Below are positions 1,199 to 40,646 of a stretch of 64,000 bases of DNA, piece by piece. The translations under genes were made by a program, and so were the position numbers. The stretch's first letter is position 1. Each line of letters starts with the position of its first letter. Source of the DNA: an uncultured Gammaproteobacteria bacterium (GTDB lineage Bacteria > Pseudomonadota > Gammaproteobacteria > JABCZS01); contig CAWKDC010000001.1 of the NCBI GenBank assembly GCA_963848305.1, positions 224,001-288,000 on the forward strand. The letters are read 5' to 3'. The notes beneath the pieces were generated by a model that worked only from the letters and a program-made list of their open reading frames with translations, was not told the DNA's origin and did no database searches.

Positions 1199-1833
1199 AT
1201 GGGCGAATTGCATTATGCAGCTGCCGCAGGGTCAGCCGAATCAGTCCGATTATTGCTTTCCTTAGGCGCTGATCCACACGCTAAAATTATACCTAGTGCA
1301 AATGAATCGGTTTATCTAAGGTTAAGAAAGCAACCAGCACTACCAGCTCTAAGAACCATCAATGGGTCGGTACCATTTTATGGATGGCACCTGAATTGAT
1401 ATCGACAGATCCCAAGTACAGCCAACAATCAGACATTTTTGCACTAGCAATCACCTTTTGGGAGATAGCCTCAAGCAAGATACCATTCGAAGAGGCCGAT
1501 AATTCAGTTGTGCCAGTCCTCATCGCCAGAGGAGATCGCGAAAAAATTCCTGCTGACTGCCCCCCAGAGTTTGGTCGCATTATCACACGTTGCTGGGCAC
1601 AAAAAGCGAGTGATCGTCTCGCGCTGGACAACGTAATTACTGAATTGAAACAAATGCATGGTGTTTCATCTGCTCCTGCAGCCGCATCATTGCCTGCCTA
1701 TCGAAACAATGTTGCACCTGCATCATCGGGTGCTTATACGCAACCGCAGCAACGGCCTCAGTATCAAGTAAATAATGTAAATTCTTTAACATCGACAACA
1801 CCCAACCCATTTACACAATTAAATAGGAAATGA
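1199..1833 (+). pseudogene. Internally deleted ankyrin-kinase gene (one ankyrin repeat fused out of frame to a kinase C-lobe and Q/N tail)
   Basis: 1199-1300 encodes LHYAAAAGSAESVRLLLSLGADP (ankyrin). From 1309 another frame reads GLSKVKKATSTTSSKNHQWVGTILWMAPEL...SDIFALAITFWE, closely paralogous to 5110-5677. The N-lobe, HRD and the DF of DFG are missing. Confidence 0.85.
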
Positions 1834-1837
1834 AATT

Positions 1838-3097
1838 ATGCTAAATCCAAATCGAGGATTAAATAATGTCTCGCAGATACCTGCAGAGCTTTCTGCCCTG
1901 CGTGTTAGAGCTCATTCTGGAGATAAAGAAGCGCAGTTTCAGTGGGGCGTAGAATATCATACCGGGAAAAATATACCGCAGGATTTGAATAAGGCTGCAC
2001 ATTGGTATTTGCAATCTGCAAACCAAGAGCATCGTAGCGCACAATTTAATTTAGGATTTCTTTATCAGAATTTGAATCTTCCACAATATTTGCCTTCAGC
2101 CATCTATTGGTATAAAAAAGCAGCAGCAAATGGCAGTACGCGCGCTCAGAAAGCATTGGAGCAATTGGATGAAGTCGAAAAACCCAAACAAGAAAATCCA
2201 GCGGTCGCTCCTGTTGCAAACGCTAATAACAATAATAATAAAGTAACTGAACCTAAAAAAACTTTAGTGCGCCCACCTGTAATCCCCTACAAAGCATTAA
2301 CCATTGGTAAAAAATTGGGCGAAGGTGCTTTTGGTGTTGTGTATCAAGCAAAGCGCGGATTAGAAGATGTCGTGGTGAAACAATTAAAATTACAGCCAAA
2401 TCAAGGATTATCTCCTGAGGCATTGGTTGATTTTGAAAATGAAGCCGGCGTTCTGGAGAAATTGCGCTCTCAATTCATTATCGCAATACGAGGTATTTGC
2501 ACACAACCCTATTGCATGGTCTTAGAATTTGCCTCGGGAGGTTCATTAGATGATTTGTTAAGGAAAAACACTTCATTAGATTGGGGTAAAAAATTAACCA
2601 TTGCATCGGATATTGGTAAAGGCTTAGCTTTTTTGCACAGCCAAGATCCTATTATATTACATCGAGATTTGAAAAGTGAAAATATATTACTCGATGAAAA
2701 TGGGCGTGCAAAATTAGGGGATTTTGGTTTGGCTAAATTAAAATATAAAACGCAAGTCACCACAGGAGCCGCAGGCACCATAACCCATATTGCACCAGAG
2801 TTGTTCACGGCGCGCCCACATCATAGCGAGGCAAGCGATGTGTACGCCTACGGGATCGTTTTATGTGAAATTGCCACGCGTCAAAAGCCCTTTGCGGGCA
2901 TACATCCTTATGATATTGCGCCCAAAGTCCTCCAAGGGGTACGTCCAGTCTTCGAACCAGAAAAAACAAACCCGCGCACCGCACCCGAGTATGCAGTATT
3001 GGTTGTGCATGCTTGGTCTCAAAAAGCTGAAAGCCGTCCCAAAATTACCGAGATTGTTCAGGGGATTGAAGAGCAGAAGAAGAAATTAGGTAAATAA
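1838..3097 (+). CDS. Sel1-repeat + eukaryote-like TKL-type protein kinase
   Basis: Two Sel1 repeats (AQFQWGVEY..AAHWYLQSA; AQFNLG..WYKKAA). Intact kinase motifs: GEGAFG, VVVK, HRDLKSEN, DFG, APE. Confidence 0.9.
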   Translation: MLNPNRGLNNVSQIPAELSALRVRAHSGDKEAQFQWGVEYHTGKNIPQDLNKAAHWYLQSANQEHRSAQFNLGFLYQNLNLPQYLPSAIYWYKKAAANGSTRAQKALEQLDEVEKPKQENPAVAPVANANNNNNKVTEPKKTLVRPPVIPYKALTIGKKLGEGAFGVVYQAKRGLEDVVVKQLKLQPNQGLSPEALVDFENEAGVLEKLRSQFIIAIRGICTQPYCMVLEFASGGSLDDLLRKNTSLDWGKKLTIASDIGKGLAFLHSQDPIILHRDLKSENILLDENGRAKLGDFGLAKLKYKTQVTTGAAGTITHIAPELFTARPHHSEASDVYAYGIVLCEIATRQKPFAGIHPYDIAPKVLQGVRPVFEPEKTNPRTAPEYAVLVVHAWSQKAESRPKITEIVQGIEEQKKKLGK

Positions 3098-3117
3098 ATA
3101 CAATCAAGGGGCGTATT

Positions 3118-5677
3118 GTGTTAAGAAAAATATTCACTGGAACTAGAATTTCACAAGACACACTCAAAAGAGTGCGTAATAATGATTCTGAGTTAACCAC
3201 ATTACATTTAGCGGTACAAGAATTAACTGATGAAGATATATTAATTCTGTGTGATGCACTTAAAACAAACACAACGCTAAGCGAGCTTCGCCTTGACAAC
3301 AACAGTATCAGTGCTAAAGGCGCTCAGGCTTTAGCCAAGAATACAACCCTGACCGATCTTCACCTTAGCTACAACAATATCGGTGATGAAGGAGCCCAAG
3401 CCTTGGCTCAAAACACCACGTTACGCAACCTTTTTCTTGCAAATTGCGAAATCGGGGATATTGGCGCTGCGGCCCTTGCCAAGAATACCACCCTGATTAC
3501 ACTTTTCCTAGACTGTAACACCCATATCGGTGCTGTAGGCGCCCAAGCTTTGGCTCAAAACACCAAGCTGCACACGCTTTTCCTTCGATATTGCAAAATG
3601 GGGGATATTGGCGCTGCGGCTCTTGCCAGGACTAGCACCCTGATTGAACTTGACCTTACTATGAACCACATCAGTGATACAGGCGCCCAGGCTCTGGCTC
3701 AAAACTCATCGTTGATAAGGCTTGAACTTGACTCCAACAATATCAGTGATAGAGGCGCTCAGGCCTTGGCTACAAACTTTACAATGTTCAAGCTTAGCCT
3801 TTCGAACAACCAAATCGGTGCTTCAGGGGCTCAAGCCTTGGCTCAAAACACCATGCTGTTCACGCTTAACCTTAGTAACGAAGGGCACTCCTTAACTGGC
3901 TATGGCCGCAACAAAATCGGTGATACAGGGCCAGGCTCTGGCTATGAATACCACACTGATCACACTTGAACTTGATGGCAACAAAATCAGTGATGTAGGT
4001 GCGCAGGCTTTGGCTAGGAGCAGCACGCTAGACAGACTTGGCCTTAGTTACAACAATATCAGTGATGTAGGTGCGCAGGCTTTGGCCAGGAACGGCACGC
4101 TAAACAGTCTTGGCCTTAGTTACAACAATATTAGCGAGGTAGGTGCCCAGGCTCTGGCTCAAAATACTTTGTTGACTGAGCTTGGTATGTATGGCCTCAA
4201 AATCAGCGAGAAAATCAGAGTTAATAATTGGAATGCGCTGCGTAAAAATAAAGATAAGCATAGAGAACGATCAAAGGCACTTATTTCAGCATGTAAATCC
4301 CAAAACCTATCACAGGTTAAATTGCTTCTCCAACAAGGCGTTCGCCCCTATGGAGAATACATCGATAACGCACCTCAAAACTCAACTAATGAAACATTCT
4401 TGCATTTAGCAGTACGTTTGCGTAATGCTGAATTGCTTGCGTTACTTTTGCCGAGAAATCCAGAGACCTCAGCAAGGAATGCTGATCACCTTACTTATAT
4501 AGAACTTGCCAAACAGATTGGATTTCCCATTGCTACGACAGCTGATTATACCAAACCAACGCCTGCAATCAGTTCAGCAAGCACAAGTTCGAGTTCGAGC
4601 ACAACCTCAAACCGCCCAGCTCCAGCGGCGCCTAATCTTATGAATGACGCCGGGAAAATTACTTTAGAGCTAAACATTCCCTTTAAACAACTCAAAATAG
4701 GTAAAGAATTAGGTCGGGGCGGATTTGGGATAGTGTATCAAGCAGCGATGGGGCATCAAGACGTTGCGGTAAAACAATTACAGCAAAAGTTATCTAGTGA
4801 TGCATTTGATGAGTTTCAAAAAGAAACAACACTCATGGCGCGATTACGTAATCCTAAGATTGTGCAGTTATATGGTGTATGTATTGAAAAGGACAGCCCG
4901 TTATGTATGGTGATGGAATTTATGTCTAATGGTTCTTTGTATGATTTCTTACATGGTAAATCCCCATTGCTTTGGCCGCTGTGTATGCAAATGGCCTTAG
5001 ACATGGCATTAGGATTACATTATTTACATGCATCACAAATTTTGCATCGTGATATAAAAAGTCCTAACGTATTATTAGATAAAAACATGAATGCCAAGCT
5101 CACGGATTTTGGTTTGTCTAAGGTTAAGAAAGAAACCAGCTCTACCAGCACCATGCATCATAAAGTAGTGGGCACTGCCTTATGGATGGCCCCAGAGCTC
5201 ATGGCACGTGCTCCAGCATACAGTGTACAATCTGATATTTTTGCATTAGCGATTACATTTTGGGAGCTTACATCCCGGAAGTTACCTTTTGAAGATACAG
5301 ATAACGCTGTTGTGCCCACATTGGTAATGAATGGCGAGCGTGAGGCAATTCCCGCTCATTGTACGCCAGGATTTAAAAGCATTATCACGCGCTGCTGGGC
5401 GCAAAAGGCAAATGATCGCCCTGGATTAGATATACTTATTTCTGAATTAAAACAAATGCAAGGAAATGTACCTGCCTCTGCACCTGGGATTGCAGCAATT
5501 CCTGCGCCAATTCACGCAGCAACGCCTGCTGCAAGACCTGCCTATCAAAACAATATAGCGCCGCCTTCGTCTTCTCCTAGTTATATGCAACAACAACAGC
5601 CTTTCTATCAAGTAAATAATTTAAATTCAGCATCATCGGGATCATCCAATCCCTTTAATCAATTCAATAGGAAATAA
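3118..5677 (+). CDS. LRR-ankyrin-TKL kinase, split by a frameshift at ~3930 (ORFs 3118-3969 and 3902-5677)
   Basis: 24-aa GAxALA LRR repeats continue across the frameshift (ACAGGGCCAGGCTCTG vs repeat consensus ACAGGCGCCCAGGCTCTG). Ankyrin repeat TFLHLAV. Kinase motifs GRGGFG, VAVK, HRDIKSPN, DFG, APE are intact. Confidence 0.85.
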
Positions 5678-8495: not shown

Positions 8496-9440
8496 TTAGA
8501 AATATTTCTTGCCGCTACTGCCTTGTTTCGACACAGGGGTGCTGCTTGCAGAGGGGTTTGACGCTTGCCTCCAAGAATCCCTCCAGGAATTTAGAGTGGT
8601 CGCAACAGGAGGAATGTATTCTTGCCCTACAACTGTATTTGGGCGCCTAACTTCTGGCTGAGCAGGCTCCCTGACTACTGGATTGGTATTGGACGGTGAA
8701 GATTGTGCTGCTGCAAGAATTTTTCTAGCATGAGTGAGCGCTATATTCGTCGAGGATGACGAAGATGGGGAAGATGACGAAGATGGGGAAGATGACGAAG
8801 ATGGGGAAGATGATGGGGATGACAGATTTGTATTTTCTCCCGAAACTTGCTTAAAGCCGTTTGTTTGTTGAATTGCAGATCGCGTCATTCGCGAATCAGA
8901 TGTGGTTGCCCTTGCTGTTGAAGAAGTCCCAGTGCTCGAATAGTCACGTTTAAAAAAAGAAATTGGTGAAGGTGACGAGAACGAAGATGACGTGGAACGC
9001 GTGTTTGATGATGCTGAAGATGTTTCTCTGGTAGGCGCAAAATTACCTGATCTCATCTCTGTATATATCGCTTGTAAACCTTGAGGCAAATGATTGTTTT
9101 GAAATGATTCAGAGCTAGAGTTTGACGAATCAGGTGAAGAATAGGCGCCAGAGGAGATAGACGGTTCGTCTGTAGATTGGCTTAAATTCGAAACCCATTC
9201 ACGAAAAGCAGGTATCTGATTAAGCCCCTTAAACAACTCCCCGATCAGCGTCAAAAATCCTACGCCTGATTGCGTTTCTTCAGGAGAATTTTCAGTGGAA
9301 TCTTCAGGGCTATTATCATCAACACCGGCTTGAACAATCGGGATATAAGCCCTGTTGCGATTTATTCTTTCTTGCAACGTTTGCGCAAGAGTAGTGCCGT
9401 ATAAACTATTGTGTAATGCATTATTGTTTGATCCAAACAC
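8496..9440 (-). CDS. Ser-rich, largely disordered hypothetical protein (effector-like)
   Basis: 314-aa ORF with a GTG start after an AGGAG RBS; low complexity. Confidence 0.6.
   Translation of the reverse strand: MFGSNNNALHNSLYGTTLAQTLQERINRNRAYIPIVQAGVDDNSPEDSTENSPEETQSGVGFLTLIGELFKGLNQIPAFREWVSNLSQSTDEPSISSGAYSSPDSSNSSSESFQNNHLPQGLQAIYTEMRSGNFAPTRETSSASSNTRSTSSSFSSPSPISFFKRDYSSTGTSSTARATTSDSRMTRSAIQQTNGFKQVSGENTNLSSPSSSPSSSSSPSSSSSPSSSSSTNIALTHARKILAAAQSSPSNTNPVVREPAQPEVRRPNTVVGQEYIPPVATTLNSWRDSWRQASNPSASSTPVSKQGSSGKKYF
8752..8823. repeat. 18-bp coding tandem repeat (about 3-4 copies, SSSPSS)
   Basis: GAAGATGGGGAAGATGAC repeated at 8761, 8779 and 8797. Confidence 0.8.
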
Positions 9441-31191: not shown

Positions 31192-31746
31192 GTGTATTTT
31201 ATGGTAATTCAAGAGGTTAACACATTTTGTGCCATCTATAGCAAGAGCAATCAGGGACATTATTTGACTGTCAATGAGGATACGCTCAAAGCTGTTGGGG
31301 GTCTGACCCCAGCAGACATCGTTGGCCTGAGGGATGTTGATCTTCCCTGGGCACCTATGTCCGAGTGTTATCTTAAACATGACAGACTCGTGATTAATTC
31401 CCGACAAACGCACGTTTTCTATGAGCCCTGTTTATATGCTGGGAAACCTCAACTTTACCGTGCCACCAAAACACCGATTATTGGTCACTCTGGGAGGGCT
31501 ATTGGGATTCACGGGGTTTCTGTTCTTGTCAGTGAGCGATGCTTGATTCCTTTAACCAAACAACAGATATCCTGCTTGCGATTATTGGCATTGGGGAATA
31601 CATACAAACAAATTGCTGTTGAATTGGGCTTATCGGCAAAAACTGTTGAGCATTATTTAGACGCAGTAAAAATAAAACTGAATTGTGAATCACGTTCAGA
31701 CTTGATCATGCAAGCGATTGAGCGGGGATTGGTGGGAGTATTTTGA
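31192..31746 (+). CDS. PAS-like + LuxR HTH transcriptional regulator
   Basis: LTKQQ..L..LALG.TYKQIA..LGLSAKTVEHY motif; N-terminal DxDLPW and KTPI PAS-like motifs. Confidence 0.85.
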   Translation: MYFMVIQEVNTFCAIYSKSNQGHYLTVNEDTLKAVGGLTPADIVGLRDVDLPWAPMSECYLKHDRLVINSRQTHVFYEPCLYAGKPQLYRATKTPIIGHSGRAIGIHGVSVLVSERCLIPLTKQQISCLRLLALGNTYKQIAVELGLSAKTVEHYLDAVKIKLNCESRSDLIMQAIERGLVGVF

Positions 31747-32282
31747 TGACAAATTCAAATATCTACACATATGTGAAGGATAATTTAGGAATCTATCAAT
31801 TCGTTTCGCCCAATGTTCTAGAATATTTTAAAAATATGAACGTCAATGATATCTTGGGGCGTTCTGATATAGAATTACCTGAACAGAAGGAAAATGTTCG
31901 CGCATGGATAGAAGAAGATCAACGCATCCTATCAACAGGAAGAGGGGAGTATGTCATTAATGCAGTAACTCTCAATGGTGTCACGGAGTGGCAGAGGACA
32001 TACAAAGCTCCCATGTTCGGGAGAAATGGAAAAATTCAGGGCATTTCAGGCACCTCCGTATTTATCAGCAAAGAAAGCCTGATTGCTCTGACAAAACAAC
32101 AAACCGCCTGTTTGCGTCTGTTAGCGCTAGGGAATACACACAAACAAATTGGAGATAAGCTTGGGCTGTCTGCGAAGACGGTTGAGCATTATTTGGATGC
32201 TGTCAAATTGAAGCTGAATTGTGAATCAAGATCAGATTTGGTCATGCAGGCCATTGAGCGGGGATTGGTCGGAATTTTATAG
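31743..32282 (+). CDS. PAS-like + LuxR HTH transcriptional regulator (tandem paralog)
   Basis: HTH is nearly identical to the upstream gene; the PAS region is divergent. Confidence 0.85.
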   Translation: MMTNSNIYTYVKDNLGIYQFVSPNVLEYFKNMNVNDILGRSDIELPEQKENVRAWIEEDQRILSTGRGEYVINAVTLNGVTEWQRTYKAPMFGRNGKIQGISGTSVFISKESLIALTKQQTACLRLLALGNTHKQIGDKLGLSAKTVEHYLDAVKLKLNCESRSDLVMQAIERGLVGIL

Positions 32283-32444: not shown

Positions 32445-32523
32445 TCAACGCGTTCAATAACCTGAATGCGGTTAGGACATTGCTATTTAGAGATGTCCTA
32501 GGGTGGGCTAAGTAGAAATGTCC
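32445..32523. mobile_element. IS remnant (transposase 5' fragment + terminal repeat)
   Basis: CAACGCGTTCAATAACCTGAAT matches 33823-33844; 32481-32523 matches 22837-22879. Confidence 0.65.
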
Positions 32524-32663
32524 GCTTTTGGGCATGCTATTGATCTCACCAATATCTTCAATTTCATTTTAATTTGGTTATATCGAAATTAGAATGAAAG
32601 GATTGTATTCTTGAGGCTGAATATAATTCAATAAATTCATAAAGATAGCCTTATATGAACCAA

Positions 32664-32692
32664 TTGACATTAATGTGTTAATCTGCTAAGAT
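32664..32692 (+). promoter_or_regulatory. Putative sigma70 promoter
   Basis: TTGACA-17 bp-TAAGAT upstream of the GGAGG RBS of 32762. Confidence 0.55.
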
Positions 32693-32761
32693 TATATGGT
32701 GCCTCAATTATATTTTTAGGTTTGAGAGCAGAGTCATAGTTTTTTACGTCGGGAGGTAGCC

Positions 32762-33127
32762 ATGTTGCACTTATTTTCTTCCAAGAAGGAGCCGCAAGAG
32801 GACGCTGTTGTTCTCGATGAAAGCCTAAAAAGAAAACTGTCCAATCTGACAGACTCTGATGTATTCACACCGTGTGGTGATTGTAAATCCTGCACCATTC
32901 GTTATAGCTATATAGGTGCGGGTTTGATCGGGTTAAAAACAACTGACATAGAAAAACTACTCCCATTCTTTAAGCAAAGTGGAATAGAGTGCTCCACCCT
33001 ACAGATTCGGGAAGGGATGCAAGAATATAGTGATAATATTGTTTTCCATGATTTCACCGATAAAAAATCATTAGTGGATACAATTAAAAGTTTGCCAGGA
33101 ATTAGAGAGATGCCAAAGTTAAAATAG
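32762..33127 (+). CDS. Hypothetical protein
   Basis: 121-aa ORF with a strong RBS and a CxxCxxC motif. Confidence 0.65.
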   Translation: MLHLFSSKKEPQEDAVVLDESLKRKLSNLTDSDVFTPCGDCKSCTIRYSYIGAGLIGLKTTDIEKLLPFFKQSGIECSTLQIREGMQEYSDNIVFHDFTDKKSLVDTIKSLPGIREMPKLK

Positions 33128-33298
33128 CAAGTGTAATATCCACCTGCTCACCTACAGTGGGAATGTTGCTGCTGTTCAAGCAGCCCAACATACCCAGCTG
33201 GCTACTTATATTTTTCTAGTTCACCGAATGCTGTCTCTTCTGAACACTCTTGCTTCTCTCACAATTCAACTCTGTTTTTTTCTCCAAAATGAATGCCA

Positions 33299-33855
33299 TC
33301 ACATTGCCAAGGCGTTTATTATCAACCACTTCGCCCTGTTCGATTCGTTGCAGGCGATCGTGAAGAATAGAGTAGGGCAGCCTGCGTATCTAACTTCGAT
33401 ATAAACCAACAAGGTGCATTTAGGGCCACGCTTTTCAAACCAATGATGTTCAGAGCCATCAATTTGAATAAGTTCGCCGTAGCATTCACGCCGGTATCTG
33501 GGCTGATAGGCACGCTTGAGGCGCTGTGTGCGGGTCTTCCATAAACCAGCCTCAACCATCAGTTTTCGTACGGTTTCGGTACTTAAGGCAATTCTATGAA
33601 GCTCTAGGAGCTTCGCAGTAGTCAGGGTTGGCCAGAGTCGTAAAAATGCTCTTTGATGAGGCTCAGAGCATTTTGTTTAACCTCATCCGATACTCTATGA
33701 TTGGATCTTGGAGGTCAAGGCAACGGCCCCAGATTCCTTGTAGGAGGCGATTAGACATCGCATCTGTCTTGAGGTCACCCCGAGGGTTTCTGCAGCTTGT
33801 GTTTGATTTAAACCGTGGCTAACAACGCGTTCAATAACCTGAATTCGGTACTTCA
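33299..33855 (-). pseudogene. Degraded ISNCY-family transposase
   Basis: RIQVIERVV..QTQAAETLGVTSRQMR HTH and RRECYGELIQIDGSEHHWFEKRG..CTLLVYI; frameshifted and truncated. Confidence 0.85.
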
Positions 33856-33860
33856 ATTGT

Positions 33861-33888
33861 TGTTCGCATAATGTATATTATGTTAATA
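33861..33888 (+). other. dif: XerCD dif site (last bases of the XerD arm altered by the adjacent insertion)
   Basis: TGTTCGCATAA-TGTATA-TTATGTTAATA vs E. coli dif GGTGCGCATAA-TGTATA-TTATGTTAAAT. Confidence 0.88.
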
Positions 33889-34028
33889 CACGCACCAGGC
33901 ATGTCTATGTCAACCATGTAATCAATGTTGATTAAGTACTTGATCCTTCATAACCAATCCTGATACTCTATGTGATACGCACACCATGTCATTTATGTAA
34001 TATTGGCTTACAAGGAGTTAAAGCGTCA

Positions 34029-35207
34029 ATGGAATTGGTTAAGATCAGATACCCCAATAATAGGATCTCATGGTCTGTTTTAAGCAATGATATTACCGTG
34101 GATCAGCTCAGAAATTGGATTATACATTTAGAAGAAATCAATCAGTCACCCAATACCATTCAGGCCTATGCTCGGCATATGGTTCGATTTGGGAATTATT
34201 TAGAAGCAAATGCCAAAACATTCAAAAAGATCTGCATTTCAGACTATGATCAGTTCCTTCAATGGCTTCCCTATGCGCTTTCAAATCCAGAGTTTCCAGG
34301 CAATGTCGTTTCGTTAAATCATCAACCAAAACGGCTTTCACCAGCACTGAAGAATCAAGTCCATTTGGCTGTGAAATCATTCTACAGATATTTGTCTGGA
34401 CAGCCTAATTTCGATTTTGACAGCGCTGAAGAATCAACCAGTTATGACAGCCCAGAAAGGTATAAACCATTTCTAGAGCATATTAATGCTCGTAGAACGA
34501 CAAGAACCAAGGATCGGTACCTACATGGTGATCCCGGTAAAGCTCAGAGAAGCGTCAGCAAACGACTAACCCCTGAAAACGTTTTAACGTTGATTAAGGC
34601 CTGCCACTTGATTCGAGATGCTTTCCTCGTGACACTTCTTTATAACACTGGCATGCGCATTGGAGAAGCTTTGGGGCTTAGACATACAGATATTGATCTG
34701 AAAGATGGCGTTATCTGGGTCATACCTCGGGCTGACAACGAAAACGGAGCTCGCGTCAAAGGCATGAAGACCCGAGCGATTCCCGTCATGAAGTACATAG
34801 TGGACATGTATGAGGATTACATCACAAGCGATGAGTATTTGGGCGCATTTGAATCTGGCACACAGTACGTGTTCTGCAATGTTCAAAAGTCACAAATTGG
34901 AAAAGCATTGTCCAAAAGCTATGGTGACAATCTCAAGAATTACCTCAAAAAAAGAACTGGCATCGAATTTACTTGGCACATGTTTAGGCATACACATGCC
35001 AGCGAAGCAATTGCAGATGGCTATAGCCTGCTTCAAGTATCTGATCGGTTAGGACATGCAAGCCCTCAAACAACAGTCAGTTTCTACAAACATTTGTTCA
35101 GCCATGAAATCAGAAAATGTCATTTAACTGGAGCAAAAAAGCTTGAAGAACGTTTAAGAGAGTTTAGTGCGACGCATACCAGCGAACGAGGTTTAAAATG
35201 GCTTTAA
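34029..35207 (+). CDS. Tyrosine recombinase, TnpA-like
   Basis: TGMRIGEALGL, HMFRHTHA and RLGHAS..TT..FY motifs; AAGGAG RBS upstream of 34029. Confidence 0.9.
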   Translation: MELVKIRYPNNRISWSVLSNDITVDQLRNWIIHLEEINQSPNTIQAYARHMVRFGNYLEANAKTFKKICISDYDQFLQWLPYALSNPEFPGNVVSLNHQPKRLSPALKNQVHLAVKSFYRYLSGQPNFDFDSAEESTSYDSPERYKPFLEHINARRTTRTKDRYLHGDPGKAQRSVSKRLTPENVLTLIKACHLIRDAFLVTLLYNTGMRIGEALGLRHTDIDLKDGVIWVIPRADNENGARVKGMKTRAIPVMKYIVDMYEDYITSDEYLGAFESGTQYVFCNVQKSQIGKALSKSYGDNLKNYLKKRTGIEFTWHMFRHTHASEAIADGYSLLQVSDRLGHASPQTTVSFYKHLFSHEIRKCHLTGAKKLEERLREFSATHTSERGLKWL

Positions 35208-37321
35208 CACTTGCATATATGACAGATGATTTAAATGAACAATACGAGGCTCAATTATCGTCTGCAATTTCGGTTATATCTCCGCTGCTTCTTAGCAATG
35301 ATGTTTGGGATCAGGAATTTGCAAATTCTGTACCGAAATTTGTTAATAAGCACATCGGTGCAAAAAGTCCTATTTCTTTCGCATCACTCCCCTCCTCCTT
35401 GAAGCTGGAGCTCAAATTATACTGGGCGAAATTGCTTTCAGACGATCGATGCAATTCGATGAGTGCAATTGAGAGAAGAAGACAATCAATGAGATGGTTC
35501 AACTCTGATGGAGCAAATATACTTTCCGATTTTAATGTCAAGACTTTATCTGATATTCCTCACCCAGAATTTCCGATAAATTGCATTGTCACATCTCGCT
35601 CAATCAAGAAGCACAATGATAGATTGTTGGAGCTGTATTCATGTTTTGAAGGGAATGGTGATCGACCTCCGCAAAAAATTTGTGTCGTCGATGATGCTAC
35701 AGGACGTGTCAATCAAAAAGAATATTTATCCACAAGGGTCACCATCATTGGGGATTTTCACAAGCAAGCTATTATAAATAGGGAACAGCTGCAACCAATG
35801 AATGGCCGGAACATTATTTTTATTAACGACCTTTACTCTGAAGAAAATGTACGATTCAAAGATAAACAACGGCAAACTGATACATATTTAAATTTTTTTC
35901 TATTCCCTCCTTGGCTGCGAGATGCCGCCAAAACGCACCTGCTTCAAAAGATATCCTTTGGCGAATTGGCACCAGGATCATTGCTTGGTTATTTTTCTAG
36001 GTTATTAAGTTTCAGAGATTTCATGCATGAAAGATTTGATATTCCACGCCCAAAACTTGTCACTGTTACTTTGATTGAAGACAATTATGTTGCCTGGGGC
36101 AATGAGAAAGGATTGGCGGGAAAGAACTGGTTTACCGACACCTTAGCGATGCTATCCACAGCGGGACGTATGTGGCCAAATGAGTGGCCTTCCCTATCAG
36201 TCTCAAATCGAGCGGCTAGAAAGATCAAAAAAACACATTACAAACAGGGGCTAGGTCGCATCGGTCAAAATCAAGAAGGTGCTGGACGCTCATATTCCCA
36301 GCGCATTGTGGATGAGCTTAATAGATCAATAAGTTCAGCACCAGATCCAATTCATGATATTTTTAGCATCATCATGGGCACTGGCATGAGAGCTGAAGAT
36401 GGGCATGCCCTCCTCTTTGATTGCCTTAAAGATGATCCAAATGATAATGATTTTATGCTTTTAACTTTTTGGCAAAATAAAGTAAGAAAATGGAATACAA
36501 AACCTTTATTAAAAAAAGATAAAGGCCATGCATATTTAATTGATTTAATTGCAGCCAGGCGAAAAAAGAATATTCATAAATACGGGAGAGAAACAAAATA
36601 CCTTTTTCCGTCCTTCACGGGGACGCAGGAGAACTTTCTAACGCCCGGATGGACAGTGCTTGAAATCAAGAAACGATGCATTGCGGATGACATCCGTGAT
36701 GAGACTAATAAACCTTTGAGCTTTTCATGGCATCCACTTCGACATACCAAGGGCACATCATTAGCCAAGGAAGGTCATGACGTAATGAGCATCATGATGG
36801 AGCTTGGACATGCCAGCCCTGATATGGCCGCTGTGTATGTTAACAATAGACTCGAATTAAAAAAACAAGCCCTCATGGAAAAAGGCAGTGGCAAATTCTT
36901 TACCATCGAAGGCAAAGTCGATACAAAAATTATGGAACTGATGGTAAGAAAGGAGCAGCTCAGCGCTACTAGAGTATGCGGTGGTGCTTGCTCTATGCCC
37001 AGTCAGCTTGGCGATTGGTGCGAGCACGCGAATGCCTGTTATACCTGTAAGCATTATCGGGCTGACGGAAAAGATATTGAGTTTTTTAAGCATGAGAAGC
37101 TTGCCATTACTGATTTAATTGAACAGCAAAAAATCGAAAGCAATGAGTTAAATGATGCCGGCCACAAACGTATGGCTGAAATACTGCAAAGACGCATGGC
37201 AAAAAACATGGACATCAACGCTTCGCTTGGCAACATTATTCAGGCAATAGAGACAACGGATCGATATCAAGGCGATAAACCAATGGCGAAGAAAATGAGT
37301 CTGGAGCAACCACATGATTAA
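35198..37321 (+). CDS. Large tyrosine recombinase, Tn554 TnpB-like
   Basis: TGMR, HPLRHT and LGHASPDM..VY motifs, plus a C-terminal G.C..P....C.HANAC.TC Zn-like motif. Confidence 0.88.
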   Translation: MALTLAYMTDDLNEQYEAQLSSAISVISPLLLSNDVWDQEFANSVPKFVNKHIGAKSPISFASLPSSLKLELKLYWAKLLSDDRCNSMSAIERRRQSMRWFNSDGANILSDFNVKTLSDIPHPEFPINCIVTSRSIKKHNDRLLELYSCFEGNGDRPPQKICVVDDATGRVNQKEYLSTRVTIIGDFHKQAIINREQLQPMNGRNIIFINDLYSEENVRFKDKQRQTDTYLNFFLFPPWLRDAAKTHLLQKISFGELAPGSLLGYFSRLLSFRDFMHERFDIPRPKLVTVTLIEDNYVAWGNEKGLAGKNWFTDTLAMLSTAGRMWPNEWPSLSVSNRAARKIKKTHYKQGLGRIGQNQEGAGRSYSQRIVDELNRSISSAPDPIHDIFSIIMGTGMRAEDGHALLFDCLKDDPNDNDFMLLTFWQNKVRKWNTKPLLKKDKGHAYLIDLIAARRKKNIHKYGRETKYLFPSFTGTQENFLTPGWTVLEIKKRCIADDIRDETNKPLSFSWHPLRHTKGTSLAKEGHDVMSIMMELGHASPDMAAVYVNNRLELKKQALMEKGSGKFFTIEGKVDTKIMELMVRKEQLSATRVCGGACSMPSQLGDWCEHANACYTCKHYRADGKDIEFFKHEKLAITDLIEQQKIESNELNDAGHKRMAEILQRRMAKNMDINASLGNIIQAIETTDRYQGDKPMAKKMSLEQPHD

Positions 37322-37745
37322 CAAAACTGATGGCTTAAAAAAGGCAAGAGACCTTAGAAGCAAAGAGAAAAGAGAGGCTGTTGAAAAAGCTATCAGCGAA
37401 CTATCGCAACGAAATGAGGCAGTAACATTTCAATCCGTGGCAGCTATGGCCTGTGTCAGCAGACAGTATCTTTACAATAACTTTAAGGACTCAATCTCTG
37501 TTGAGCGCAATTCCTCTAGGAGTGTTGCTGATGTGATTGATGGCATCACGGTACCAGCGAGAACGCCAGATGAGCACAAGCATGTTGAAGCCCTGCTCCG
37601 CAACAAAATTGAAAAGCTTGAGAAGGAAATGAGCGCGCTGAGGCAGGAAAACGCACGAATGAAGCAATCATTGGAAAAAGAAAGGGGTAAAGCCGAACAT
37701 TTTAGGCAAAATTGGCTTAATTCAAAATCAAAAGATGTATTGTAA
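37314..37745 (+). CDS. TnpC-like (DUF6262-type) HTH/coiled-coil accessory protein
   Basis: VTFQSVAAMACVSRQYLY HTH plus coiled coil; third gene of the triplet. Confidence 0.8.
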   Translation: MINKTDGLKKARDLRSKEKREAVEKAISELSQRNEAVTFQSVAAMACVSRQYLYNNFKDSISVERNSSRSVADVIDGITVPARTPDEHKHVEALLRNKIEKLEKEMSALRQENARMKQSLEKERGKAEHFRQNWLNSKSKDVL

Positions 37746-37758
37746 AAGGAAAGGTTGA

Positions 37759-39465
37759 ATGGGCATTATTCATGATTCGATAAAAGCACTAGATGTAATT
37801 GATTCTCAACTGGAAGAATATGAGATCCTAAATGTATTATCCAAAATCGATAAACATGCACTTACCCCTCAGGAATTGAAGCATGGTGAATACGAGTGGA
37901 TTGCTTTCAACATGCAGGATGGATTTAATTGGTCGAAATATGCAGGAAAAACATGGGGGACTTACTTTGGTCCTGTATGGGTATTTCCTGATGGAACAGT
38001 TTGGCCTGATAAGTCAATGATTACAGAAGAAGCTGTTTGCTATTGGGCAGCTCGGTTGGATGAGTGTGCTCATCCTGTTCTTAAAGCAAGATATGCTGGG
38101 CTCGTTTGGGATTTTAAAAACATCCTCAAGGAAAAACAGAATCTTCGTGAACTCCCGAAGATTATTATTAATAACTGTTTAGTGATTTCAAAAAATCACC
38201 TCCACAAATATCCTCATGAGGAGCTTATAAAGTTAAAGTGGGCTCTTGAGACCGCACTCTCTGTAAAGGATGAAAATATTGCCAAAGATATACTACGTGA
38301 GATGTTCAATCGCAATGGCTTTGGCGGAAATATTTCAATTATCGAGTTCTTATTGAAGAATAAAAAGGCACCGTTAATTCCTGAGCAAAAAAATCAACTG
38401 ATAACCGAGCTAAGAAGTTACAGCGAATCTCGTTGCTTCTCGACTGCCATGCAGTCAGCGGTAATTCTTGCCAATTACCACAGAAGCAAAGATAACGAAA
38501 AAGAGGCCAAGCAATCGATTCTTAAGTATATCAATAATGTTCTTGAAAATTCAACTGTCGAGCAACCTTTAAGATGGAAATTTATTCTTGAGGAGGCATT
38601 AAGTTTGACAAGAAAATATGGCCTGGGAGATGACATTGTGAATCAAGTGGAATGTGAGCTGAGATTGATTTGCGATAACATTTGGAAAGACATGAAAGTA
38701 ATTAAGGCTGAGGCTATTGTCGATTTCACTGAATTCGACCTTTTTATCGACTCTGTTCTTTCAAACAAAAAGAGCTCGATTCTTGATGTGCTAGCAATTA
38801 ATTTTATACCGAAAGCTCAAGATGGAAAGATGCTTTTTGATCAACTAAAAAATGACAATCCAATTTCCTATTCTATAAACAGAACCTTGTTTGGGCCTAA
38901 TAATATAACCTCGGCCGATCTGGATGAAAATGATAACGACCTTATTCATACCATAAAACAGCTGATCATAATAAATGGGGTTTTTTTGAAAAGATTTATA
39001 GAAAAGTGTCGCTTTTGTAAAAGAATAACCATGAGAACCGTCAAAAAACATTTTTCTAAATCACATTTATTCAAAGAAACTCATAATCGGCAGTTGTTTC
39101 ATGGTCTTAAGTCATATTTTAAAAAAGATTATATTACGTCAATATACATTCTTGTCCCTCAGCTCGAAAATGCAATAAGAGTGCTTTTAAATGAAAGTGG
39201 TTCGGCAGGTTTAGAACCAAATAAATCTGGCGGATTCGATGAGCGCGCCCTGGGAGCCTTGTTTAGCATGGATGGTTTAAAGTCAATTTTAGGCGAAAAC
39301 CTCATCACATATTTCAAGACGATTTATACACATAATGCAGGGATTTACTTAAGAAATTTAATATCTCACGGTAACGCATGTGATGCTGTATTTACTGCAG
39401 AACACGCAGATTTGGTTTTTCACTCACTCATAATACTGGCTGCGCTACCCTCCCTGAAAACATAA
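37759..39465 (+). CDS. DUF4209-type protein with a C-terminal HEPN-like RxxxxH motif
   Basis: HPVLKARYA..VW near the N-terminus; LVPQLENAIR and GIYLRNLISHG near the C-terminus. Confidence 0.75.
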   Translation: MGIIHDSIKALDVIDSQLEEYEILNVLSKIDKHALTPQELKHGEYEWIAFNMQDGFNWSKYAGKTWGTYFGPVWVFPDGTVWPDKSMITEEAVCYWAARLDECAHPVLKARYAGLVWDFKNILKEKQNLRELPKIIINNCLVISKNHLHKYPHEELIKLKWALETALSVKDENIAKDILREMFNRNGFGGNISIIEFLLKNKKAPLIPEQKNQLITELRSYSESRCFSTAMQSAVILANYHRSKDNEKEAKQSILKYINNVLENSTVEQPLRWKFILEEALSLTRKYGLGDDIVNQVECELRLICDNIWKDMKVIKAEAIVDFTEFDLFIDSVLSNKKSSILDVLAINFIPKAQDGKMLFDQLKNDNPISYSINRTLFGPNNITSADLDENDNDLIHTIKQLIIINGVFLKRFIEKCRFCKRITMRTVKKHFSKSHLFKETHNRQLFHGLKSYFKKDYITSIYILVPQLENAIRVLLNESGSAGLEPNKSGGFDERALGALFSMDGLKSILGENLITYFKTIYTHNAGIYLRNLISHGNACDAVFTAEHADLVFHSLIILAALPSLKT

Positions 39466-39648
39466 CCGAAACGACAGCCCCCTACTGGTTGTCCAGAGGC
39501 TGTGAAAATTTCACTGCTAGTTAATGCCGTGAATATTTTATAAATATCCCTTGTTTCCACTTGAAAATTGAGCTCTCAATCACCATGTAAGCAGCTGATC
39601 GTTATTTTTGAAAAATATCCATAAATAATTCATTGGAGTCAGATTCTC

Positions 39649-39849
39649 ATGAGATTATACGATAATTATGATGCATTTAAAGCGAACCCATATGATGAAG
39701 ATGAGAAAAACAGAGTGATCAAGCACTGTGCCCATTATATGGAAAGGAATGCGACTATTCCATATGAGCTGCAGTTATGTTTTGATCTTTTGAAAGAAAG
39801 AGAACCTGAATATGTGAATTCATACTTATCACTAATGACATTAGCATAA
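39649..39849 (+). CDS. Small hypothetical protein
   Basis: 66-aa ORF with a GGAG RBS. Confidence 0.4.
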   Translation: MRLYDNYDAFKANPYDEDEKNRVIKHCAHYMERNATIPYELQLCFDLLKEREPEYVNSYLSLMTLA

Positions 39850-39873
39850 CATAAGTCATTGATTAAAGGGATG

Positions 39874-39905
39874 TTTACACGATTTGGTGTGCATACATGT
39901 TAAAT
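39874..39905 (+). repeat. 32-bp element right end, copy 1
   Basis: TTTACACGATTTGGTGTGCATACATGTTAAAT, identical at 40615-40646. Confidence 0.95.
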
Positions 39906-39920
39906 GGAGATAAAAAGCAG

Positions 39921-40538
39921 CTAGAGCCTCGGTGTTATCGCTTTATACCCACGCCAATCAAGTAAGTGAATTTGGTTTTTTTGCATCTCGTACATTTTAT
40001 ACACTGCGATTGCTTTCGGATCTTCTAAAATAATAACATTCTTGATGGCGCCATCTCCAGAGCGTAGGTTTTTTTCAGTTGATGGCGCATTGGTCACATC
40101 CCCAATTACAATTGTGTCAAAGTTAGCGCGATTTTTCACTTGTGCACAGCACACTTCGCAAGGTGTCAGTGTTGTGAACATTGTGGCTTGGCGAAAATCT
40201 ACAGGTCCCTGTCCTTTAAGCTTTGCGACTCTTCCCGCATCTCTCAATGCGCTTGTTTCACCATGCATTGTTGAGTCATTTTCTTGAATAAGCGTATTGT
40301 GTCCCTTACCGATAATTTGTCGCCCTTCACCAATGATCACTGCGCCAATCGGGCATCCTCCTTCTTTGAAAGATTTAATCGCAAGAAAGGTTGCTATTCG
40401 CATGAAGTCTTTATTTTGGAGTTTATTGAAAAATGCAGGCTCCACAACACGTGGCAGAAATTCCGTAGGGAGCAATGCAATGAGATTAAGCACGGCATCA
40501 TCAACGGGAGTGTATCGAGTTATATAAAGATGTTCCAT
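39921..40538 (-). CDS. Zn-dependent cytosine/nucleoside deaminase
   Basis: PIGAVI, GHN, HGE and PCEVC motifs. Confidence 0.88.
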   Translation of the reverse strand: MEHLYITRYTPVDDAVLNLIALLPTEFLPRVVEPAFFNKLQNKDFMRIATFLAIKSFKEGGCPIGAVIIGEGRQIIGKGHNTLIQENDSTMHGETSALRDAGRVAKLKGQGPVDFRQATMFTTLTPCEVCCAQVKNRANFDTIVIGDVTNAPSTEKNLRSGDGAIKNVIILEDPKAIAVYKMYEMQKNQIHLLDWRGYKAITPRL

Positions 40539-40614
40539 TCGTCTATTCTACCACCTTACTTGCCTCATCTCTTTGTTTACAGAAATAATGCATAACCTAT
40601 TGATTCAATCGTCA

Positions 40615-40646
40615 TTTACACGATTTGGTGTGCATACATGTTAAAT
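40615..40646 (+). repeat. 32-bp element right end, copy 2
   Basis: Identical to 39874-39905. Confidence 0.95.

Follow-up and report, generated by a model that had tools for sequence, protein, structure and literature searches.

The dif site is a single-copy sequence conserved among bacteria and is also found on plasmids. Xer recombinases exchange strands at the borders of its central region, and this exchange depends on pairing within that region. To our knowledge, the elements so far described at dif, known as IMEXs, all borrow the Xer enzymes of their host. Tn554 uses a different address, and its attachment site has been reported in radC. Here, we describe a 6,010-bp element that carries two tyrosine recombinases of its own, resembles Tn554 in gene content, and occupies the dif site of an uncultured gammaproteobacterium. 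The element lies in a 64,000-nucleotide stretch of DNA (C1:224001-288000, hereafter the window) from a 1.89-Mb assembly in 4 contigs, whose incompleteness of ~8% by marker completeness bears on any statement about the uniqueness of dif. Coordinates refer to the window unless a contig or locus is named.

Two bodies of literature are relevant to this locus. Within the accessible portion of a study of Tn554-related elements, the hosts given are Staphylococcus and Enterococcus only, with the remark that host range was not formally investigated; the same portion reports that, in Tn554 relatives and SEs, a 6-bp flank on the left of the old site is copied to the right of the new one (PMC10214605). 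A TnpA subgroup is defined in the available part of a second study, which leaves dif sites unmentioned there (PMC8138268), and a third, again as far as its available part goes, describes Tn6260 as a Tn554-family element on Proteus plasmids with no link to dif (PMC6737455). No report of a dif target for SEs or GInts was met in the accessible portions of the two sources that treat them (PMC10214605, PMC5385486). Among IMEXs, LME-1, which contains a dif mimic, uses XerL and has the Legionella dif as its integration site, according to the part of the source available (PMC9765430). Across the literature searched, no link between Tn554-type elements and dif was found, although subscription journals and supplements, which lay outside the search, may hold some.

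An insertion inside the XerD arm of dif

The chromosomal dif site, as it now stands, forms the left junction of the element (attL) at 33861-33888 on the + strand. It comprises an XerC arm (33861-33871), the central region TGTATA (33872-33877), and an XerD arm (33878-33888), and reads TGTTCGCATAA-TGTATA-TTATGTTAA-TA. The XerD arm is broken after TTATGTTAA, giving the junction TGTTCGCATAA-TGTATA-TTATGTTAA|TACACGCACCA; the first base of the element is 33887, so the final two bases of the arm (TA) are supplied by the element itself. Directly before this junction lies the left copy of a 7-bp core, ATGTTAA (33880-33886, + strand), which corresponds to XerD-arm positions 3-9 and is the putative crossover region, in keeping with a 7-bp flank overlap at an empty site in Halomonas (see below). 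At the other end, the element closes with TGGTGTGCATAC|ATGTTAA-AT, where a second copy of the core and the two bases after it occupy 39897-39905 (+ strand). Five relatives that belong to the same class but to other genera and families have unoccupied dif sites, which end in ...TCGCATAATGTATATTATGTTAAAT. The AT at the right end is therefore the displaced end of the XerD arm, and the site in the window is a dif whose last two bases have been altered.

Several genomic features mark this site as the chromosomal dif. Firstly, no second dif-like site is present in any of the 4 contigs when up to 6 substitutions per 26 nt are allowed. Secondly, the cumulative GC skew of contig C1 peaks at 260 kb when binned at 10 kb and at 264 kb when binned at 1 kb (minimum at 1.14 Mb), and the element spans 257,887-263,896 of that contig, which places it at the skew maximum. 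Finally, the host encodes an XerD that scores above the curated cut-off (359.5 bits versus 329.6) together with a second Xer paralogue. The first-pass annotation of the window had proposed an insertion at dif, within the XerD arm, whose missing end is supplied on the right; the junctions, the five relatives, and the skew profile all bear this out, and no competing dif lies at the skew switch.

That annotation had also noticed octamers resembling FtsK-orienting polar sequences (KOPS) pointing toward the site, and here the outcome is divided. Between dif and the origin, the KOPS-like octamer GGGNAGGG occurs 12 times in forward and 75 times in reverse orientation, with 1 versus 27 in the first 200 kb, and the proposed polarity holds. 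On the other replichore it is weak, with counts of 26 versus 20 from C1:1 to dif and 27 versus 24 between the origin and the end of the contig. Either the organism has polar motifs besides this octamer, or the order of the contig hides rearrangements. The octamer is also polar on contigs C3 (19 versus 4) and C4 (8 versus 0), and GC skew is flat across the first 150 kb of C1 (G000:C1:1-150000).

Recombinase genes and element ends

The element (33887-39896) contains five genes, all on the + strand, which encode TnpA, TnpB, TnpC, a DUF4209 protein, and a short 66-aa open reading frame (ORF) product. tnpA (33972-35207) encodes an Xer-like tyrosine recombinase (Pfam Phage_integrase, E 1.2e-31) of 411 aa if translation starts at the GTG at 33972, or 392 aa if it starts at the ATG at 34031. 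tnpB (35198-37321) encodes a large tyrosine recombinase of 707 aa with a C-terminal cysteine cluster; its catalytic residues R398, H512, R515, and Y547 are invariant in an alignment of 29 homologues, as are C594, C598, C608, C614, and C617, and it matches staphylococcal TnpB. tnpC (37314-37745) encodes a 143-aa DUF6262 protein (E 1.6e-10; 41.6 bits versus a cut-off of 29).

The trio was compared with a Tn554-type locus on a Staphylococcus aureus plasmid (L050) rather than with Tn554 itself (X03216). The reference genes lie at 538-1623, 1626-3539, and 3541-3867 of that locus and encode proteins of 361 aa, 637 aa, and 108 aa, the last with DUF6262; the locus is called Tn554-type by virtue of this architecture and of a Bacillus cereus match annotated as ‘Tn554-related, transposase B’. 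TnpA is 34% identical to the first protein of the staphylococcal trio over 343 aa (E 2e-53), TnpB is 22% identical to its counterpart over 335 aa (E 3e-13), with the C-terminal cysteine motif common to both, and TnpC is 42% identical to the DUF6262 protein over 52 aa (E 4e-9). The homology of both recombinases, the gene order tnpA-tnpB-tnpC on a single strand, and the overlaps between the genes reproduce the Tn554-type layout, and a DUF6262 third protein is likewise encoded in 4/4 relatives scanned. The original designation of the element as Tn554-like is thus borne out. Because the TnpB similarity amounts to just 22% and is confined to the C-terminal half, the element would nevertheless be placed in the Tn554 family in the wide sense only. 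The close TnpB clade is small, with 480 matches at E <= 1e-3, 137 at E <= 1e-10, and 28 at E <= 1e-30 among 1.84 billion cluster representatives.

The left end (33887-33990, + strand), as defined by an alignment of 18 elements, contains a terminal arm TACACGCACCA (33887-33897), the invariant TGTCTATGT (33902-33910), and a second copy of the arm, TACGCACACCA (33976-33986). The TA at the tip and GTCYATGT do not vary across the alignment. The right end (39826-39896, + strand), defined by an alignment of 19 sequences and a motif-position test, contains a site resembling the IHF consensus (39852-39863), TTTACACGAT, and the terminal arm TGGTGTGCATA (39885-39895), followed by a C. Across the 19 sequences, right ends share an architecture of ~80 bp in which a distal ACACAATTGACA-like motif precedes YAANNNNTTGAW at a fixed distance, TTTACACGAT, and the arm. 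The motif TAYRCRCACCA, correctly located by the first-pass annotation, occurs at 33887 and 33976 and in inverted form at 39885-39895, and the two terminal arms are imperfect inverted repeats.

The same annotation placed IHF-like sites inside both ends, and only the one in the right end is conserved. YAANNNNTTGAW, which resembles the IHF consensus, lies at the fixed distance in 13/19 right ends, versus 3 of 2000 shuffles. The TAANNNNTTGAT copy in the left end is not conserved in the left-end alignment, and the window holds 7 copies of TAANNNNTTGAT against 5.7 expected; 7 or more were seen in 41/100 shuffles, which is the chance level.

Target specificity across the family

A profile scan based on an alignment, covering one genome per species, retrieved 38 TnpB loci; a search with the single TnpB protein as query had returned none. 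Four of the loci lack a left end, and six begin within 10 nt of it, leaving 28 that are informative about the target. An Xer-type site abuts the element at the same junction and in the same orientation in 26 of these. The pattern ATAA-N6-TTATG[TC]... directly adjoins the left end in 25/28, and one further locus (L016) deviates from it by a single base in the XerC arm, a variant that also occurs in the empty site of a congener. The six loci beginning within 10 nt of the left end start with ..AA or ..TTATGTTAA, as would be expected for multi-copy elements whose flanks differ further left.

The family extends over Gamma-, Alpha-, and Betaproteobacteria. Hosts include Halomonas, Salinicola, Alcanivorax, Halioglobus, several gammaproteobacterial metagenome-assembled genomes (MAGs), many Sphingomonadales, a Rhodospirillaceae MAG, and a Burkholderiaceae MAG. 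A plasmid is occupied as well: on pNL1 of Novosphingobium aromaticivorans, a 4,075-bp copy lies in an Xer-type site beside vapBC. In one Novosphingobium MAG, two contigs, of 126 kb and 4.1 Mb, both contain a copy, and each copy has a site of its own. Of four further host genomes, three have no dif-like site other than the occupied one. In the complete chromosome of Alcanivorax sp. IL2, the occupied site at 2,398,381 is the only dif; GC skew, taken in twenty 20-kb samples, stays positive as far as 2.37 Mb (+0.012) and then drops to -0.004 at 2.42 Mb and -0.052 at 2.52 Mb, so that the change of sign lies between 2.37 and 2.52 Mb. In Halomonas sp. KAO, another site that matches the dif pattern perfectly is present at the extreme end of a different contig (G413:C40:244-264); it may be the site of a second replicon or belong to a second copy of the element.

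An empty site is available for one family member. The flanks of a 12,343-bp element in Halomonas nitroreducens are contiguous in a congener (G431), with an overlap of 7 bases, and the site there reads GACTTCGTAGAATATATATTATGTTAAAT, an intact dif that ends in AAAT and has the same host-specific variant. The first-pass annotation had suggested both that TnpAB homologues be examined for association with dif and that relatives be examined for an empty site; 26/28 informative loci together with pNL1 answer the former, and the Halomonas pair answers the latter.

Proposed route of integration

We conclude that the element is very probably a Tn554-type transposon in the wide sense, inserted site-specifically and in one fixed orientation into the XerD arm of the only dif of its host, and that the Xer sites of chromosomes and plasmids are the normal target of its family. 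In the route that we propose, TnpA and TnpB, with help from TnpC, would join the two ends into a circle. The circle junction would read right-end arm, C or T (C in this element), ATGTTAA, left-end arm, an imperfectly palindromic core site of the usual tyrosine-recombinase layout, and would recombine with the identical 7 bp at XerD-arm positions 3-9. At the left junction, the product keeps the XerC arm, the central region, and 9 of the 11 XerD-arm bases, and AT is replaced by the invariant TA from the element tip. Because the dif at the left junction is near-complete, the host probably retains a working dimer-resolution site there, and the element would occupy a conserved, single-copy safe harbour. 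The first-pass annotation interpreted the locus along these lines, as an element that targets dif with its own recombinases and leaves it almost intact; the family data support this, while catalysis by the recombinases and function of the rebuilt dif are what we infer.

Some observations weigh against this reading. The resemblance to staphylococcal TnpB is as limited as described above. Locus L013 has a right-end junction and lacks a left end or a dif upstream of tnpA (8500-9100; 21391-21470), and L021 keeps the central region and XerD arm with its XerC arm replaced by unrelated sequence (8880-8960). The TnpB loci are mutually related and do not constitute independent samples. No syntenic empty site for the window copy emerged from a nucleotide search of 40 relatives because these are too distant, and tnpB occurs in just 1/12 genomes of the host's family, the host itself (G000), so no close empty site exists for comparison. 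Contigs from four public runs in four studies of soil and wetland metagenomes, one of which may be the source sample, support the two junctions, since they match parts of the stretch at 99-100% identity and dif is joined to the left end in one contig and the first right end to the module beyond it in another. No contig from these four low-depth runs, however, skips the element or shows a whole-element circle junction.

Alternative explanations

The absence of a circle or empty-site joint in the four runs, together with the single copy in the genome, is also what one would see if the window copy were an immobile relic that became fixed at dif in this lineage. This is possible, though we regard it as doubtful. 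All five ORFs are open, the catalytic residues of TnpB are intact, the ends have every conserved motif, and the first and second right ends (see below) are identical over 32 nt. In addition, low-depth contigs such as those of the four runs drop rare forms.

A somewhat less probable alternative accepts the target and the enzymes and differs in mechanism: the element would be a classical integrative element that is reversibly cut out and pasted in across a 7-bp overlap, in the manner of a phage integrase, instead of following the copy-out circle with flank carry-over of Tn554 and the SEs. Junction cores speak to this question. Among 21 elements for which both junctions could be compared, 16 have the same 7-mer on both sides, as classical integration would produce, and five (L018, L027, L035, L039, and L047) show a single-base difference at core position 5 or 7. 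Unequal cores would be expected if a short flank were carried over from a previous site, and the five pairs fit such carry-over and do not prove it; unequal cores could equally arise from a classical integrase with some tolerance for mismatches in the overlap. The empty site with a perfect dif in a congener suits reversible excision, but that site may never have been occupied. The gene set argues in the other direction, being that of Tn554 with its TnpC/DUF6262 protein and containing no Xis-like gene.

It is very unlikely that the element is an IMEX, that is, that host XerC and XerD integrated it through a carried dif mimic while tnpABC are passengers or serve another step. The attractions of this idea are that the element sits at dif, as all IMEXs do, that the host has XerD and a second Xer, and that the right-end arm resembles the XerC arm of host-clade dif sites (GTGCATA compared with CGCATAA in gammaproteobacteria; GTTGATA compared with T[CT]GATAA in sphingomonads), a likeness that we put forward as an observation from two clades. 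However, homology to the empty site is lost within the XerD arm, past position 9 at the left junction and ahead of position 3 at the right one, rather than where the central region begins or ends. Lacking a central region, the right junction would be no Xer substrate of normal geometry. The central regions of occupied sites are also highly varied (TGTATA, TATATA, TCAGGA, TGCACA, TATTTT, and others), while Xer exchange needs pairing there; it is the XerD arm that is constant, with TTATG and the TA of the element tip invariant. The break within the arm and the varied central regions argue against exchange by XerCD, and every family member has the recombinase trio. With its junctions within the XerD arm and two tyrosine recombinases of its own, the element was rejected as an IMEX.

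Least probable of all is that the dif-like sequence, although found beside nearly every copy, belongs to the element as a carried mimic rather than being the dimer-resolution site of the host; this was rejected since the element end stays constant and the XerC arm and central region vary from host to host, the empty site in G431 has the same host-specific variant (GTAGAA) as the occupied L016, two genomes have the site as their only one and at the skew switch, and contigs of multi-copy sphingomonad elements of ~4.08 kb break at or just inside TTATGTTAA, as if their left flanks differed.

Cargo genes

Behind tnpC, the window element carries a gene for a 568-aa protein (37759-39465, + strand) with a C-terminal DUF4209 domain (Pfam E 2.6e-10), which also matches PADLOC PDC-S39 (E 1e-25) and is a candidate defence gene. 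The 66-aa ORF that follows (39649-39849, + strand) has no family match in Pfam, NCBIfam, or PADLOC, and Rfam gave no match in window positions 20000-45000 at E up to 0.1.

Elsewhere in the family, 16 elements of 4.02-4.08 kb contain tnpABC alone; they occur in sphingomonad-type hosts, alphaproteobacterial MAGs, and the Burkholderiaceae MAG. Gammaproteobacterial elements carry a DEAD/ResIII helicase (L014), an AAA_21/SMC-like ATPase with a type III restriction-modification pair (L016) or with a TauD-like protein (L011), or a ParE toxin (L018). The cargo of the family consists mostly of defence-type or toxin-antitoxin genes.

Modules without tnpABC beside dif

The right end of the element is followed by a module of 741 bp (39906-40646, + strand) that has neither a left end nor tnpABC and finishes in a second right end. 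This second exact copy of the right end, at 40626-40646, was overlooked in the first-pass annotation. The final 32 nt of the module (40615-40646, ending ATGTTAAAT) are identical to 39874-39905, and the module contains a gene for a cytidine/dCMP-deaminase-like protein on the minus strand (39921-40538).

Similar arrangements occur in two relatives, and the majority of the modules are toxin-antitoxin pairs. In a genome of the same genus (G002), an intact dif is followed by at least five modules, each ending in a right end plus ATGTTAAAT, with the array lying on two contig ends. These modules encode a PemK/MazF pair, two PIN-MazE pairs, a DinB-family protein with an uncharacterised ORF, and a 212-aa protein. 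In a genome of another genus (G004), an intact dif is followed by a single YefM-YoeB module. Beyond the last right end, both arrays reach a homologous GIY-YIG gene, directly in G002 and after a 321-aa ORF in G004. Right ends are 78-91% alike between the two genera, whose genomes are otherwise almost without nucleotide similarity, and the characterised module genes point toward dif. Neither genome has tnpB, according to the scan of 12 genomes of the family. In G002, a gene for an AadA-like nucleotidyltransferase (L051 3327-4136; AadA_C, E 6e-30) lies directly left of the intact dif.

These arrays raise the tentative possibility that dif serves in this lineage as an integron-like landing pad, in which cassettes defined by a right end alone (~80 bp) would be captured serially at ATGTTAA in the XerD arm and shuffled by TnpABC acting in trans from an autonomous element like that of the window. 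Alternatively, the modules may be debris left behind after an autonomous part was excised via an inner right end. In wider searches, the junction pattern of right end and core was found in only 2/401 genomes of the class, both from the host's genus, and a metagenome scan gave 8 loci with one right end each and no arrays. No description of arrays of right-end modules beside dif was found in the literature searched.

One public contig touches on module mobility. A 597-nt contig from run X4 goes back 741 letters, from 40614 to 39874, through the 32 shared letters, at a depth under 3. It could represent a circular or tandem module or an artefact of the assembly graph, since Logan contigs are presumably built with 31-letter words and the repeat shared here is 32 nt, and it was counted as no evidence.

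The XerC side of dif

A second family of repeats, ~50 bp long and arranged in arrays at spacings of ~0.8-1.5 kb, is found on the XerC side of dif in G002 and on contig C53 of G004. Copies in the window lie at 32482-32530 and 22834-22879, and others at L051 2428-2483 and 3193-3273, at L052 7269-7320, 8517-8603, and 10092-10146, and at L053 4728, 6128, 7577, and 8519. Copies on contig C11 of G004 and the window copy at 22834-22879 are not tied to dif. The repeat has a weak hairpin (DNA fold z -2.05) and no Rfam match. In runs X2 and X4, contigs have 18 other letters in place of window 32524-33704, at the ~50-bp repeat. Given the arrays and this replacement, the left side of dif also looks modular.

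Also left of dif, a 22-bp direct repeat, CAACGCGTTCAATAACCTGAAT, at 32446-32467 and 33823-33844 bounds a segment of 1.38 kb that contains a 121-aa ORF and short ORFs without a Pfam match (33299-33559, 33628-33822). In run X1, a contig passes straight from 32445 to 33823, which shows that a variant lacking the segment exists. Further out, two tandem ORFs with near-identical 3' ends (31192-31746 and 31743-32282) may encode a LuxR-type C-terminal region, judging by eye, and have copies with 70-78% nucleotide likeness at C1:255541, 775723, and 780831.

Significance

The element represents a second route to dif, in which a Tn554-type recombinase pair of its own would cut inside the XerD arm and rebuild a near-perfect dif. 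With it, the range of Tn554-type elements grows beyond Firmicutes to take in Alpha-, Beta-, and Gammaproteobacteria, and a new target is added. The evidence supports a target class that is new for elements of the Tn554 kind, and a cassette-like extension beside dif that was unexpected. The series of occupied sites, empty site, and unequal cores that nature provides can be used to work out the transposition route of Tn554 and the SEs, and the terminus emerges as a place where defence and toxin-antitoxin genes accumulate. With a target in most proteobacterial replicons, the recombinase system could serve as an integration tool. The locus also raises the question of how cells tolerate a transposon inside the XerD-binding arm of their dimer-resolution site. 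If the landing-pad interpretation of the modules were true, a Tn554-type recombinase pair would form the basis of a cassette system that has its anchor at the replication terminus.

Comparison with known systems

Tn554 and its relatives (Tn553, Tn558, Tn6260, Tn6674, and others from Staphylococcus, Enterococcus, and other Firmicutes) share with this element the order tnpA-tnpB-tnpC and the overlapping genes. Imperfect inverted ends and insertion specific for site and orientation are also common to both. The dif family differs in its hosts, which are Proteobacteria, in its target, which is an Xer site, and in its cargo, which comprises defence or toxin-antitoxin genes where Tn554 relatives carry antibiotic-resistance genes. 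As in the Tn554 relatives treated in the available part of PMC10214605, the short core of the dif family is not necessarily equal on both sides.

SEs and GInts resemble the dif family in their target specificity, as far as the accessible portions of the two sources show (PMC10214605, PMC5385486). According to the same portions, they carry over 6 bp from the left flank to the new right junction and have a fourth core gene (tfp/ginC) between the recombinase genes (PMC10214605, PMC5385486). The dif element lacks this gene: tnpA and tnpB overlap directly, with nothing between them.

IMEXs such as CTX-phi, TLC-phi, the gonococcal genetic island, and Legionella LME-1 are likewise found at dif, and they leave a usable dif on one side, as this element probably does. 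They have no integration recombinase and rely on host Xer acting at the central region, whereas the element described here has two recombinases and a junction inside the XerD arm.

Finally, the modules beside dif recall the pdif modules of Acinetobacter and the cassette arrays of integrons, in that short modules, often toxin-antitoxin pairs, stand in a row beside or between recombination sites. No dedicated search for an integron integrase was made, and the boundaries of the modules are those of neither array type. pdif modules are bounded by complete, inverted XerC/XerD sites. The dif-side modules, unlike these, are bounded only by direct repeats of the right end plus ATGTTAAAT, which contains nine bases of the XerD arm and no central region.

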